Shown in pieces: positions 34,274 through 62,537 of a stretch of DNA of 64,000 nucleotides. Each line of letters begins with the position of its first letter. Position 1 is the first letter of the stretch. The notes under the pieces are model-generated. The model did not search any database. It worked only from the letters and a program-made list of their open reading frames with translations, and was not told the DNA's origin. This stretch comes from Shigella phage ShigP1, in the sequence record PQ818763, one strand, 5' to 3'. The translations under genes and the position numbers were made by a program.

Positions 34274-34639
34274 TTAACGTCCCCAATCTTTATTGGTAAA
34301 CGTTTTTAGTCGGTGACAGTTCGCACAAAGTGTTTGAAGATTTTCTTCTCTATTATCTTTGTGATTACCGTTTATGTGATCTACATCTAATTGACAAGTG
34401 TGTTTAGGGACGAAACCACACAACTCGCACACTTCTTTCTTAAAGTCTACGTATGGCGATTTATATCGTCTAGTACGTTCTCTGTGTGCATCCATATTCT
34501 CGTACTCTCTTTTATTGCAAGGAGAGCACAAAGGTGCAAACTTTCCACCACCTTTTGATTTCTGAGGGTTCTTGTTGCACAAAACACAAAGACCACGAAC
34601 ATTAGATGGCTCTGTTTTTCTAAACCTCCATGTTCCCAT
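34274..34639 (-). CDS. HNH endonuclease
   Basis: CELCGFVPKHTCQLDVDHINGNHKDNREENLQTLCANCHRLKT is a canonical HNH motif. Confidence 0.8.
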   Translation of the reverse strand: MGTWRFRKTEPSNVRGLCVLCNKNPQKSKGGGKFAPLCSPCNKREYENMDAHRERTRRYKSPYVDFKKEVCELCGFVPKHTCQLDVDHINGNHKDNREENLQTLCANCHRLKTFTNKDWGR

Positions 34640-57893: not shown

Positions 57894-59924
57894 TTAACCT
57901 CTATTCAATGAACATTTAGGAGAATTACAATAAACTTGATTCATAGAACCAAGCGTACAACTTTCAGCATCGCGCCACGGAATCTGCTTAAAACACTCTG
58001 AGCAGTATCCGAGGGTTGACCACATTGCTTTGGTGAAGTCAGTGCTTCGGTTTCCGTCGAAGCTGACGACAGTTTTGCGGAGAGCTGTTCGTGATTCAGG
58101 AAACACACCTGCTTTCTCAGCAGGTTCCTCCTTTTTTGGCTTAGTTGAGATTGCAAAAATACTGTTGCTACGTTTCTCAACATAAGCATCAACAACATCC
58201 TCCAGAGTGATGCCTGTCTGTTTCGCTGAGGAAGGTAATACAGTCATACGACCGATCATATCTTCAGTTACACGTAAAGCGAATTCAGGACGACGGGCGT
58301 TTGTTGTATCTGTTGCTTTAATCCAGACATAACCATCTTTGATCGTAGCATTAGACACTTTCTTCTTTACTTCTACAGCGCAGACTTTACAGATATCTTC
58401 ACCACGAAGACGACTAAGTTCATCATCGAACTCATTCTCTGTTTTAACTTCACCGCAGATTTCACAAACACCAATAGGAGTTTCCTCCTCTTCTTCCTCT
58501 TTAGGTTTAGTCAAACCTTCCAGACATTCAGGATGCCAATAGCACTGATATGCGAAGACTGCTTTAGGTGCATCCTTCCAATCAATGTGCTTATCACAAC
58601 CACCACAATCACCATGAGAGTGCGCTTCCCAGAATTTACGAGTGATAGTAACACCATTCTTGTTGACGAAACTATCATTCATATCAAAAGGGATATCATC
58701 ATCGAAGTCAGCAGTAGTTGACTCAGGCTCCTTTTTCTCCAGAGATGGGTCAACAAAACGACCTGCTGTGATCACTAAACGGACCATAGCATTGACTTCG
58801 GAGATGCAGGATACTGTCCCACGGTAAACAATTTTAGGGTCTTTCAGGGCATCCTGATAAGCCTTAATGTCTACGTTATGAACATCACCTTCGATATACT
58901 CTTGAGATTTCTCATCGTAGATATAACCAATCATCTTACCACGAGAAGGAACAGCACCGGCAGTTGCATAAGGAACAAACTCATGCGGAGTGATTTCCAC
59001 AGTCATATCGCGGCGAATATCAATGTTTCGATCGCTTGCGATTTTGTTTTGACTTACCACTGCGTTTCTTCGACGAACGTCTGCCGCTGTCACACCCGGC
59101 TTCGTGTCGTAAGGATTGCTTGTACTGCTTTTTGAGGAACTTTGATAGTTGCTTTGGCTGTAATTGTTCGAGTAGTAATTGCCCCAACGATTGACTACCG
59201 TAAAAACCGGAAGCTCGTGGGCGACCTCTTCAACCAGTGTCATGCTGTTATTAGACATGTCAAAGATATACTCTGTACCAACTTTACACTCAAAATGCTC
59301 ATCAATACGGTTCTTGTGAGACTTCGAACGCTTCAGAATCCACATCAGCATATCTTCTTCAGAAGCGCCAAACCAATCTCTGTTACAACGTGCGAGATGG
59401 AAAGGACGCTCTTCGTTACGAATGATATGAAGGCGGTTATCAGAAGCATCATGCCAGATTAAGGTGAAAGCACCATCCAGCTTTTGAATAGTCTCTGCTG
59501 CACCAATAGTGTTAATAGAGTGGCAGATGTTCTCACTATCTACCTCGAAGTTTTTACTGTCAGGTAACAGGTCTTGGTCCATCAAGGTTCCATTATGAAC
59601 CAGAGTGATGTTACCATGTTGGAAAGGATGGGCGTTCTTGGCGTTAACTGCACCTTTCGTTGCATGACGACTGTGACCAACAATCCATGAAGGTGCTACA
59701 GTGTAAGCTGTTTCACCAGTGGTGTGCTTCTTGTACTCATCTTGTAGGATGAATGCGAAAGAAGGAAGAGCTTCTTTATAAGTGAAGACTTCCTTAGTAC
59801 TTTTACGCTGACCAAAGATACCGGAGGAATGTTGTCCTCGGAATACTCCAGCATAAAAGAGTTGGTTAAATACGTCTAAATCAGTGCTTGACAGATTACC
59901 GCCAGCTAATACGATGCCACAAAT
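57894..59924 (-). CDS. Class-II (Ntn) glutamine amidotransferase domain fused to a Cys-rich C-terminal domain; probable non-AUG (ATT) start
   Basis: Manual upstream translation gives (K)I-CGIVLAGG...FRGQHSSGIF...VGHSRHATKGAVNAKNAHPF...LVHNGTL...SDSEN, the class-II GATase signature with catalytic Cys 2 codons after a stop; AGGTGG lies 8 nt before the ATT. Confidence 0.65.
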   Translation of the reverse strand: MCGIVLAGGNLSSTDLDVFNQLFYAGVFRGQHSSGIFGQRKSTKEVFTYKEALPSFAFILQDEYKKHTTGETAYTVAPSWIVGHSRHATKGAVNAKNAHPFQHGNITLVHNGTLMDQDLLPDSKNFEVDSENICHSINTIGAAETIQKLDGAFTLIWHDASDNRLHIIRNEERPFHLARCNRDWFGASEEDMLMWILKRSKSHKNRIDEHFECKVGTEYIFDMSNNSMTLVEEVAHELPVFTVVNRWGNYYSNNYSQSNYQSSSKSSTSNPYDTKPGVTAADVRRRNAVVSQNKIASDRNIDIRRDMTVEITPHEFVPYATAGAVPSRGKMIGYIYDEKSQEYIEGDVHNVDIKAYQDALKDPKIVYRGTVSCISEVNAMVRLVITAGRFVDPSLEKKEPESTTADFDDDIPFDMNDSFVNKNGVTITRKFWEAHSHGDCGGCDKHIDWKDAPKAVFAYQCYWHPECLEGLTKPKEEEEEETPIGVCEICGEVKTENEFDDELSRLRGEDICKVCAVEVKKKVSNATIKDGYVWIKATDTTNARRPEFALRVTEDMIGRMTVLPSSAKQTGITLEDVVDAYVEKRSNSIFAISTKPKKEEPAEKAGVFPESRTALRKTVVSFDGNRSTDFTKAMWSTLGYCSECFKQIPWRDAESCTLGSMNQVYCNSPKCSLNRG

Positions 59925-60003
59925 TTTCTAATCCACCTGAAGGGTAAACCCTTTCATCTAATTAACCTTTAAATTGTGCCCCTTTATCAGAGGCACCCAT
60001 TGA

Positions 60004-61107
60004 TTACAGCGCTTGCTCTAACTGATTTTCCAGATGGTCTGGAATGTACCCTGTGATATTGCTATCACTGTGACCTGACTCACGTAGTAAGTCAAAAATA
60101 GCACGGATACGCTGTTCTGGAGCGTGTCTTACTTGAGATAGGTCTGCTGTACGAAGCATAACCAAAATCTCTTGGTACAAGTTGTTAGCGTTCCCTCGGA
60201 CATACCCAAGGAAGCCATAGAAGTCTGACATAAGACGTAAGTCAACAAGAGCCTCTCCGTTGGAGTTGGTTCGACGTAAACGAATACGACCAGACTGTTC
60301 TACTTCATGAGAACGGCAATACAAAACATCACGGGCCATACAATATCCTGAATGCAAATCAGATTCATCCAGATTGTAATCCAGAGGAAGGTAAGGAAGC
60401 ATTGGGGCAAATCGTACAGTATTTAAGTGCTCAATAAACTGATCATTGCTCATATCTGCGTTATCTAAAGCCAGCTTCTTCAACATCAAGAAGCGGTTAA
60501 CCAGATTGAGAAGTTGACCACGTTTCCACTTAGGCTCACTGATACGGAACTCAATTGAACCGTATTGGGCAAGTGGCAGAAGGTTCAGAGATGTATATTT
60601 ATCCCATGAACGAACCAGACGGTTGAAGAATTCTTCACCATCGTAGTTAAATGCGTCAGAGGCATTCATTACCTGTGCTTGTACCACTGCAAACGCAGGG
60701 CAGAAATTGCTACGGTAACGATGGTAGCCTGAACACTTGAACAGCATCTTTTCATAGAAGGTCCAAGCAAGGATGGTCTTCTTGAGGATATTACTATCAG
60801 CATCCCTCATATCCATATGAACGTGAGTAGAGCAACGCCAAGTCCCCTCGGCGTGCGATTCAGCTACTGCTTCACTCAGGTTGTTGATAGCGTCTAACAA
60901 CTCCTGTCCGTTGTAAGGTCGTGAACATACCATTTCACAACCGTTACGCAGGGAACCATCCTCTGTGCAATCCCACATATCTGCTTCGATATGTTCAGAA
61001 CCTTCGAGTTCAAGTTCAATACCGACACCGCACTGAAGTGCAATTGAACTATGCGCCTCAGTTAAACGACCTTCTCGATATCCAAAAGTTTGCGCTACAG
61101 TTGTCAT
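60004..61107 (-). CDS. Amidoligase-like protein, paralogue A (glutamine-synthetase/GCS2-like motif set)
   Basis: GIELELEG, STHVHMD and YGSIEFRIS occur in the same order as the equivalent motifs in 61731-62537; family assignment is from memory. Confidence 0.45.
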   Translation of the reverse strand: MTTVAQTFGYREGRLTEAHSSIALQCGVGIELELEGSEHIEADMWDCTEDGSLRNGCEMVCSRPYNGQELLDAINNLSEAVAESHAEGTWRCSTHVHMDMRDADSNILKKTILAWTFYEKMLFKCSGYHRYRSNFCPAFAVVQAQVMNASDAFNYDGEEFFNRLVRSWDKYTSLNLLPLAQYGSIEFRISEPKWKRGQLLNLVNRFLMLKKLALDNADMSNDQFIEHLNTVRFAPMLPYLPLDYNLDESDLHSGYCMARDVLYCRSHEVEQSGRIRLRRTNSNGEALVDLRLMSDFYGFLGYVRGNANNLYQEILVMLRTADLSQVRHAPEQRIRAIFDLLRESGHSDSNITGYIPDHLENQLEQAL

Positions 61108-61730: not shown

Positions 61731-62537
61731 TTATGCTACCTGAAGGAGTTTGATCTGCTGGTCAGCTTCTTTAACGTTGTTCCCGTTAATGATTTCATGA
61801 AGCTTCTCAATCGGAAGGCGAGAGTGCAATGCCATCAGGGTGGACATATCACACTGCTGAACAACCTTGTCAACCTGATCGTAAACAAACTTACGGTTTT
61901 CACGATCACTAATCCAGAAGTTAGACAGAGAACGGTATTCAATACCATAGTCTTTATAACGGATTGCAGATGCTTTACCGTAGAGTTCTTTACGGCGAGT
62001 ATCTTTGTCCATAATTACTGCTGGGAGAGACAGGAAGTAGTCACACAACACACCCAGCATCATCTGAGTTTGCAGAGTGATATCCAAAGCACCAACTACG
62101 CCAAGATGTACGTGACCACCGGCAGTACGAAGTCCCTTATTCTGAGAAGTCGGGGATGGGTTTTTCTGACCAGTGAAGGCGTTGAAATCAGGAGTGCACC
62201 CGAAGATGAACGCTGATTCGTTAAAGGTCTTCATCTCTTCTTCAGTGAAGATGTGAGAGCTAACACCCGGAGCTGTTTCCATGTCCAGTTTGTTCAGGAC
62301 ATTATTGGTGAGATCAATACCACGTTGCATGTTATCGTTAAACGCTTCAAAACCGCTCTGTGGGTCAATATCAAACTCAGCCAGTACGTTGTCCTCTTGG
62401 AGACGAACATCCTTAGCCAGAGCGATCTTATCGTCCTTAGAGCAGCCTAATAAACCGGCTACAGAAGTGATGATACCATTACTAGTACGAACGAACATTT
62501 CAGGGTCAGAGCCGATGAGGAATTTGCGCTTAGTCAT
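61731..62537 (-). CDS. Amidoligase-like protein, paralogue B
   Basis: IGSDPEMF, GGHVHLG and YGIEYRSLS motifs. Confidence 0.45.
   Translation of the reverse strand: MTKRKFLIGSDPEMFVRTSNGIITSVAGLLGCSKDDKIALAKDVRLQEDNVLAEFDIDPQSGFEAFNDNMQRGIDLTNNVLNKLDMETAPGVSSHIFTEEEMKTFNESAFIFGCTPDFNAFTGQKNPSPTSQNKGLRTAGGHVHLGVVGALDITLQTQMMLGVLCDYFLSLPAVIMDKDTRRKELYGKASAIRYKDYGIEYRSLSNFWISDRENRKFVYDQVDKVVQQCDMSTLMALHSRLPIEKLHEIINGNNVKEADQQIKLLQVA

Follow-up and report, generated by a model that had tools for sequence, protein, structure and literature searches.

An amidotransferase fusion protein of phiEco32-like phages carries a conserved internal copy of the C-terminal tip of E. coli SSB

The 64-kb window analysed here (64,000 nucleotides of Shigella phage ShigP1, PQ818763) carries on its minus strand a homologue of the phiEco32 gene phi32_83, referred to below as gp83, and the analysis concerns the 2,028 bases of this gene. 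Its DNA is 100% identical to that of Escherichia phage ES17 and 97.9% identical to that of phiEco32; all 80 of 80 near matches come from phages of E. coli or Shigella, and the phiEco32-like relatives are classified as Kuravirus, Gordonclarkvirinae. The product joins a glutamine amidotransferase (GATase) domain to a C-terminal half (C-half) with an OB fold and predicted zinc modules, between which a disordered segment holds an exact copy of the C-terminal tip of SSB, the E. coli protein that binds single-stranded DNA. The features of the gene are listed below in window positions, with residue numbers (aa) and, for the structure models, the predicted local distance difference test score (pLDDT).

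57894..59924, minus strand: gp83 gene (phi32_83 homologue), 676 aa, ATT start, stop codon at 57894-57896
59925..60003, minus strand: gp83 leader between the amidoligase gene and gp83, containing two hairpins, the Shine-Dalgarno sequence GGTGGA and the ATT start
59190..59924, minus strand: class II (Ntn) GATase domain, aa 1-245 (Pfam, Foldseek, conserved Cys2, R86, N111-G112 and D129)
59094..59189, minus strand: Ser/Asn/Tyr-rich low-complexity linker NYYSNNYSQSNYQSSSKSSTS, aa 246-277 (pLDDT 25-28)
58740..59093, minus strand: basic helix (aa 278-300) and predicted OB fold (aa ~301-395; b1-b2-b3-helix-b4-b5), from model and fold search
58674..58739, minus strand: disordered acidic linker, aa 396-417 (net charge -7; pLDDT <50 in both models)
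58686..58709, minus strand: DFDDDIPF at aa 406-413, identical to the C-terminal tip of E. coli SSB, then a conserved D414
58509..58673, minus strand: predicted zinc module 1, aa 418-472 (C440, C443, H464, C467; ligands invariant), similar to LIM zinc finger 1
58335..58472, minus strand: predicted zinc ribbon 2 and long helix, aa 485-530 (C487, C490, C512, C515; ligands invariant; pLDDT ~80-86)
58140..58334, minus strand: small beta-rich domain, aa 531-595 (pLDDT 82-88), with no assignable family and no Pfam or PDB sequence match
57897..58082, minus strand: predicted zinc module 3, aa 615-676 (C641, C644, C666, C671), a repeat of module 1, with C656 invariant too

The SSB-tip motif and its distribution

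E. coli SSB ends in the nine residues MDFDDDIPF (PMC3632105), and the gp83 octapeptide is identical to this tail in 8 of 8 positions, so that the likeness noted in a preliminary description of the sequence is exact. In a tblastn search E. coli SSB matched the tip alone, with no similarity upstream of the octapeptide. The number of chance matches expected is ~6e-8 in gp83, given its own composition, and ~2e-6 in a phage proteome of 25,000 aa. The motif is invariant in Kuravirus, Nieuwekanaalvirus and Suseptimavirus, as is its near flank (KEPxSTTADFDDDIPFD), with the C-half differing by ~40%. Codons within the motif differ synonymously between these genera (GAC/GAT, TTC/TTT), and therefore it is the peptide that is under selection. 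These codon differences, like the lack of upstream similarity to SSB, also bear on the idea of a recent transfer from the host ssb gene. Among 15 sequences with identities as low as 31%, the core DD-x-PF (D409, D410, P412 and F413) is invariant and D414 nearly so, amid an acidic linker that varies in length and sequence. Some remote members of the family (P0012-P0017, P0020 and P0027) retain DD[IVA]PF[DEG], and in several others merely degenerate acidic/hydrophobic strings are found at the motif position.

Burial of the octapeptide together with a lack of conservation in homologues was named in the preliminary description as one of two outcomes that would speak against its reading. The octapeptide is conserved, and it lies in a segment modelled as disordered (aa 398-414), with pLDDT of 26-46 round the motif in two independent models, between well-modelled domains. 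Its position in gp83 is internal; 263 residues come after it, and there is no free alpha-carboxylate.

In the phage collection the C-half is present only in Gordonclarkvirinae of E. coli and Shigella (97 records), and a collection of 5.8 billion proteins added further clusters, the most distant at 45% identity. A profile run exhaustively against 1.84 billion representatives picked up the module in only 20 proteins (clusters), which are 524-808 aa long save one fragment of 52 aa; all 19 of the 19 retrieved carry GATase motifs, and the match lies in the C-terminal half. Judging by these sequence searches, the C-half module exists only in fusion with this phage amidotransferase. The motif is distributed more narrowly. 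It is absent from the cultured homologues outside Gordonclarkvirinae, which come from phages of Salmonella, Proteus, Aeromonas and Pseudomonas and from E. coli phage PJNS034, and so it is ruled out as a feature of the whole family. Most of the motif-free homologues keep the rest of the architecture, those of LUZ24 and PJNS034 with fewer zinc modules. Since the cultured relatives outside the subfamily do not have it, the motif is a lineage-specific linear motif that has arisen in a pre-existing acidic linker.

Viral contigs (IMG/VR) were scanned for the heptapeptide DDDIPFD in frame, that is, for the tip together with the Asp that follows it, and at least 120 loci were found. Among the matches listed, four belong to the gp83 family and 27 open reading frames (ORFs) stop directly after the Asp; the residues after the motif number 1-14 in 44, 15-75 in 32 and more than 75 in 13. 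The representatives with 24-70 trailing residues are SSBs of the gp32 family (PF08804). In SSBs of the PF00436 family from uncultivated-phage contigs, DDDIPFD is followed by 0-11 residues, a checked representative having 10. Selection thus keeps this peptide, including the Asp after the Phe, at non-terminal positions of proteins that are undoubtedly SSBs, which makes a functional internal copy in gp83 credible. Two further observations were made in the same scan. One gp32-like protein (L027) has two tandem copies of DDDIPFD, DDDIPFDEDPVAEDNDIPFEEE, and large non-SSB ORFs carry the heptapeptide in acidic linkers, namely L026 and L032 (~1,000 aa), the portal-like L030 and the 2,028-aa L087. Linear motifs of this SSB-tip-like kind may be general among phages.

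Domains, gene model and leader of gp83

The C-half was modelled twice. A full-length AlphaFold2 (AF2) model, built from an alignment of 11 sequences, gave a confident stretch at aa 290-395, a pLDDT of 26 over the motif and, because the alignment was so small, a poor GATase domain (pLDDT ~30). When aa 278-676 were re-modelled alone with 15 sequences, the mean pLDDT reached 78.9, and the order obtained was an N-terminal helix, a b1-b2-b3-helix-b4-b5 domain (pLDDT ~90), the disordered segment, and the zinc modules with the beta domain (pLDDT 80-90). A Foldseek search with the first model placed the five-stranded domain near RPA, hSSB1, Teb1 and an SSB-domain protein (probability 0.95-0.98). A BFVD search returned members of the family first (Cronobacter GAP52 and Aeromonas LAh_9) and, next after them, the OB domains of viral SSB, DUF669, DnaE_OBF and LEF-3. 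This OB fold is the only sizeable globular domain of the C-half with structural neighbours. It gives no match to the Pfam SSB (PF00436) or gp32 profiles, and the C-half as a whole gave no sequence match to PDB chains at E values up to 10 and only sub-threshold zinc-finger noise against Pfam, the best being LIM (E 1e-3 in 5 of 11 members).

The preliminary description had supposed that the C-half might be an unusual partner synthase domain, and had proposed structure prediction with a similarity search as the way to check this, a known synthase fold with unclustered cysteines being the other outcome named as speaking against its reading. Neither a synthase nor another enzyme fold was recognised among the structure-search neighbours, and the supposition was not borne out. 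On the models, the C-half is composed of an OB fold and of small zinc and beta modules, with no recognisable enzyme fold. The OB fold, as well as the homology between zinc modules 1 and 3, had been missed in that description.

The three sets of four Cys/His residues (C440/C443/H464/C467, C487/C490/C512/C515 and C641/C644/C666/C671) do not vary among 15 sequences, the most distant at 31% identity, which is consistent with the zinc binding previously suggested for this region. The cysteine pairs on which that suggestion was built stand at CGGC 440, CEIC 487, CKVC 512, CSEC 641 and CNSPKC 666-671, the last being CPNC in distant homologues; one of the cysteines counted then, C461, is variable, most homologues having Ala, Ser or Gly there and a minority Cys, and the probable ligand in its place is the invariant H464, giving the first site the pattern CxxC-x20-HxxC. 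Modules 1 and 3 are homologous repeats (BLASTP E 5e-6; hhalign probability 94.8%, E 5e-8). The profile of module 1 gives weak matches to LIM finger 1 of LMO4, LMO2 and paxillin (E 0.005-0.1), and no PDB sequence match was found for module 3. The likeness of module 1 to LIM zinc finger 1 and other treble-clef C2HC fingers lies in the spacing and flanks, CxxC-x-K-x-I...(Y/W)-H-xx-C-(L/F). A full LIM domain is ruled out, however, as the first and second zinc sites are 19 residues apart and not 2; the matches are marginal, no second finger adjoins at LIM spacing, and the ligands of module 3 are of the C4 type.

The N-terminal domain was assigned by Pfam to GATase_6 (E 1.1e-14, 55 bits against a cutoff of 27) and to GATase_7 as well, and Foldseek matched it to the GATase domains of asparagine synthetase (AsnB) and PurF. 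The Cys nucleophile directly follows the initiator residue, (M/I)CGIV being kept in all full-length homologues, and Cys2, R86, N111-G112 and D129 are invariant in the homologue alignment; we take them to be the equivalents of Cys1, Arg73, Asn101-Gly102 and Asp127 of PurF. From its sequence, the domain looks catalytically competent. No fused acceptor (synthase) domain was found in gp83 by Pfam, PDB sequence search or Foldseek, and the candidate synthase partners are encoded by separate neighbouring genes (Amidoligase_2, COOH-NH2 ligase type 2 and ATP-grasp). Most database records name the protein GlmS (L-glutamine:D-fructose-6-phosphate aminotransferase). GlmS has a similar N-terminal class II GATase domain with Cys1 chemistry, but it continues into two C-terminal SIS domains, where gp83 has the OB fold and the zinc modules. 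Pfam gives only GATase families for gp83, and no SIS domain was found in the C-half by sequence or by fold; the name is therefore a misannotation.

The Ser/Asn/Tyr linker was noticed in the preliminary description and is indeed present after the GATase domain. Its composition is kept in distant homologues and its sequence is not; a linker rich in Tyr, Ser and Asn (also Asp and Gly) follows the GATase domain from Kuravirus to LUZ24 (L008, L009, L130, L131 and L133). It resembles prion-like, condensate-forming regions, which may be relevant given that E. coli SSB is reported to phase-separate.

The region 57894-59250, taken in the preliminary description as the C-terminal part of an amidotransferase fusion, is indeed the C-terminal ~451 aa of the single 676-aa ORF. 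An in-frame ATT followed by TGT-GGC-ATC and preceded by GGTGGA gives the upstream reading of gp83, and the RefSeq annotation of phi32_83 uses the same start. The mechanical ORF list began the gene at an internal TTG, giving only 563 aa. Because of the ATT start, many database records truncate gp83 (the same 563-aa TTG call, and calls of 627 and 667 aa), so that the catalytic Cys is lost, and in several records the gene is split or left unannotated. Relatives outside the subfamily start with ATG. The 79-nucleotide leader folds as two hairpins (minimum free energy -22.9 kcal/mol, z -2.0), the second adjoining the Shine-Dalgarno sequence, and Kuravirus, Nieuwekanaalvirus and Suseptimavirus share its last 30 nucleotides, aaagggtttacccttcaggtggattagaaa, which directly precede the start, at 100% identity, in contrast to the ORF, which diverges by ~20-30% across the three genera. 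By analogy with the AUU start of infC, the leader and the ATT codon suggest translational control. In the proteomics of phage SU10, gp83 protein is among the early gene products.

The early operon and the amidoligase island

The gene lies in a minus-strand early operon. The following further features of the window were noted, all but the last from this operon.

61731..62537, minus strand: phiEco32-like COOH-NH2 ligase type 2 gene (Pfam PF14395, 2.3e-8)
60004..61107, minus strand: Amidoligase_2 gene, candidate synthase partner (Pfam PF12224, 4.5e-8)
57658..57891, minus strand: DUF7195 ORF of 77 aa, directly downstream of gp83 (E 4.7e-17)
56257..57450, minus strand: ATP-grasp (RimK-like) gene (weak Pfam Dala_Dala_lig_C; annotated as ATP-grasp/RimK-like in relatives)
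56002..56250, minus strand: homologue of phiEco32 gp79, between the ATP-grasp and GGACT genes
55331..55750, minus strand: gamma-glutamyl cyclotransferase-like (GGACT) gene (Pfam PF06094, 3.4e-17)
34274..34639, minus strand: HNH homing-endonuclease-like ORF among the early genes (several PHROG HNH families, best E 3.7e-14)

The operon runs from the COOH-NH2 ligase type 2 gene through a hypothetical gene, Amidoligase_2, gp83, DUF7195, a small ORF and ATP-grasp to further small ORFs, including the gp79 homologue, and then GGACT, a small ORF and the primase-helicase. The same island order is found in phiEco32, KBNP1711, ECBP2, SU7, Privateer, SE131 and LUZ24, and the core order, minus the gp79 homologue, extends over Nieuwekanaalvirus, Suseptimavirus, Proteus phage Privateer, Salmonella phage SE131 and Pseudomonas phage LUZ24. 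The island as such is widespread in phages of E. coli, Salmonella, Proteus, Aeromonas, Vibrio and Pseudomonas. Its gene order thus persists across very different podophages, beside replication genes; the primase-helicase gene is close downstream, adjacent to the island in LUZ24 and one small ORF off in the window.

A small ORF is found at the position of DUF7195 in Privateer, SE131, LUZ24 and LAh_6 too, and for this reason DUF7195 may be a partner subunit of gp83. In the ATP-grasp protein, aa ~280-397 comprise an acidic linker (EEVEEFAESADDENF...EESSEPVPE) and, after it, a ~80-aa C-terminal domain with no assigned family; this layout of enzyme, acidic linker and extra domain is the same as in gp83. 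Two activities are described for gp79 of phiEco32, inhibition of host sigma-70 transcription and stabilisation of the phage sigma factor (PMC12276001).

For the island, described by Iyer, Abhiman, Burroughs and Aravind in 2009 (Mol Biosyst 5:1636), a role in cell-wall modification against superinfection was proposed, as reported in a paper that cites their work (PMC10580990). Both the gene and the island had been known before and carry annotations. What appears undescribed in the literature searched is how the C-half is built and that it holds a conserved SSB-tip mimic; no mention of an SSB-tip motif in gp83 was found in the searchable literature, the original 2009 paper being outside that search.

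Interpretation and comparison with known systems

The C-terminal tip of SSB is a hub peptide at which more than 12 replication, repair and recombination proteins of E. coli dock. The explanation we favour, with moderate confidence, is that residues 278-676 of gp83 form a non-catalytic targeting or scaffold module which, from its disordered linker, presents a host SSB-tip mimic to proteins having an SSB-tip pocket. The N-terminal 245 residues would be a class II GATase/amidohydrolase, apparently active, tethered through the flexible Ser/Asn/Tyr linker to the targeting module, and the exposed motif would occupy the SSB-tip pockets of host proteins, or those of proteins in the phage replisome that make use of the host SSB. 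It might either bring gp83, and along with it the amidoligase and ATP-grasp enzymes that separate genes of this early operon encode, to sites organised by SSB, or compete with SSB for its partners. What the analysis establishes is the arrangement of domains, a motif that is conserved, modelled as disordered and identical to the tail of the host protein, and a module confined to this phage enzyme; zinc binding, the ligand of the OB fold and all binding partners we infer.

Several points weigh against this explanation. According to co-crystal work on ExoI, RecQ and chi, the free alpha-carboxylate of the terminal Phe aids binding of the SSB tip, and the Phe of the gp83 motif, being internal, offers no terminal carboxylate; that D414 stands in for it is a conjecture. 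Many members of the family function without the motif. The OB domain is acidic (pI 5.2).

The acidity of the OB domain also counts against another, rather unlikely explanation, in which the OB fold and the acidic tip are a real single-stranded DNA-binding module and gp83 doubles as the phage SSB or as an SSB-like fork protein, the tip recruiting partners and the zinc modules aiding DNA binding. The order of OB fold, disordered acidic segment and tip is indeed the layout of an SSB, the gene lies in the early operon beside the primase-helicase, and no SSB is annotated in phiEco32, Bas90 or Privateer (see also records PQ850626.1 and NC_010324.1), in spite of their T7-like polymerase and primase-helicase. 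PHROG scans of ten window ORFs (nine besides gp83, mostly hypothetical) found no SSB family, gp2.5-like SSBs being hard to detect and the window being short of the genome by ~11 kb, and, as mentioned, E. coli SSB recovered only the tip in the tblastn search. Yet the OB domain matches no SSB or gp32 profile of Pfam, homologues that have no tip retain the OB fold, and in phages that replicate in very different ways the module always comes as a fusion with the GATase, set within the amidoligase island.

The motif might instead concern the ligases of the phage itself, as a docking peptide for the amidoligase or ATP-grasp partner, or as a mimic of a pseudo-substrate or product if the island modifies acidic C-terminal tails such as that of SSB, a possibility that we also consider of low probability. 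RimK is known to extend the acidic C-terminus of ribosomal protein S6. Two genes of COOH-NH2 ligase type and the RimK-like ATP-grasp gene flank gp83 in conserved order, the GATase needs a synthase partner and has none fused to it, and the nearly invariant Asp after the tip makes the segment read as an SSB tail lengthened by an acidic residue. However, a docking site should co-vary with the enzymes docked, and these are conserved in four phages that have no such motif, Privateer, SE131, LAh_6 and LUZ24; this persistence of the ligases weakens the proposal, and no link between the ligases and SSB was found here. Because the motif-free homologues keep both the architecture and the gene cluster, an added host-interaction motif is favoured over a docking site for partner enzymes. 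The likeness to SSB could finally be devoid of specific function, an SSB-like string held by chance in an acidic low-complexity linker; the linker is acidic, acidic stretches are common in the protein, and several family members have at this position only the degenerate strings mentioned above. Such a coincidence is highly improbable, and is excluded in practice by the conservation of the core amid varying flanks down to 31% identity, by the chance expectation of ~6e-8 and by the synonymous substitutions.

A broader and decidedly speculative proposal, which we consider improbable, is that the whole early island (two amidoligases, gp83, ATP-grasp and the cyclotransferase) is a modification system aimed at the replication fork. 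The OB/zinc/tip half of gp83 would then be an address label placing the enzymes on SSB-coated DNA or on the partners of SSB, where their targets for covalent modification would be newly made phage DNA or a member of the SSB interactome, whose acidic C-terminal tail might, for instance, be amidated or extended. Gordonclarkvirinae are reported to withstand restriction-modification systems strikingly well, and neither a pathway that modifies their genome nor a restriction inhibitor is known in them (PMC11990801); this proposal, if true, could explain their resistance. The HIDEN-SEQ preprint contains no data on these phages.

Were the mimicry of the SSB tip by gp83 to be confirmed, it would stand as a clear example of a bacterial virus imitating a short linear motif, and would give a first functional handle on an island described in 2009, the function of which is so far not experimentally known. 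The peptide concerned is central to bacterial genome maintenance as a docking site and has been proposed as an antibiotic target. The non-terminal DDDIPFD in many phage SSB tails also bears on whether a free terminal carboxylate is needed for recognition.

Among known systems, the gene content and order are those of the phage amidoligase/GAT-II/ATP-grasp/GGCT island (Iyer et al. 2009), of which gp83 is the GAT-II component and phiEco32 the type example. The resemblance to the C-terminal tip of bacterial SSB (SSB-Ct, DDDIPF) extends beyond the eight identical residues to the amphipathic character of the peptide, acidic and then hydrophobic, and to its location, a disordered stretch rich in acidic residues that lies downstream of an OB fold. 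The differences are that the tip of bacterial SSB stands at the extreme C-terminus and that of gp83 is internal, and that bacterial SSB is a PF00436 protein, whereas gp83 is an enzyme fusion with an acidic OB fold not assignable to the SSB family. The phage SSBs with a non-terminal DDDIPFD (PF08804 and PF00436) have in common with gp83 this heptapeptide with its Asp, set in a tail that is acidic and disordered, away from the extreme C-terminus; they are, however, recognisable SSBs with the motif ~0-70 residues from the end, while in gp83 it lies in the middle of the protein between folded domains. Since DDDIPFD is kept internally in these phage SSBs, gp83 is a variant of a recurring theme of internal tips and not a one-off.

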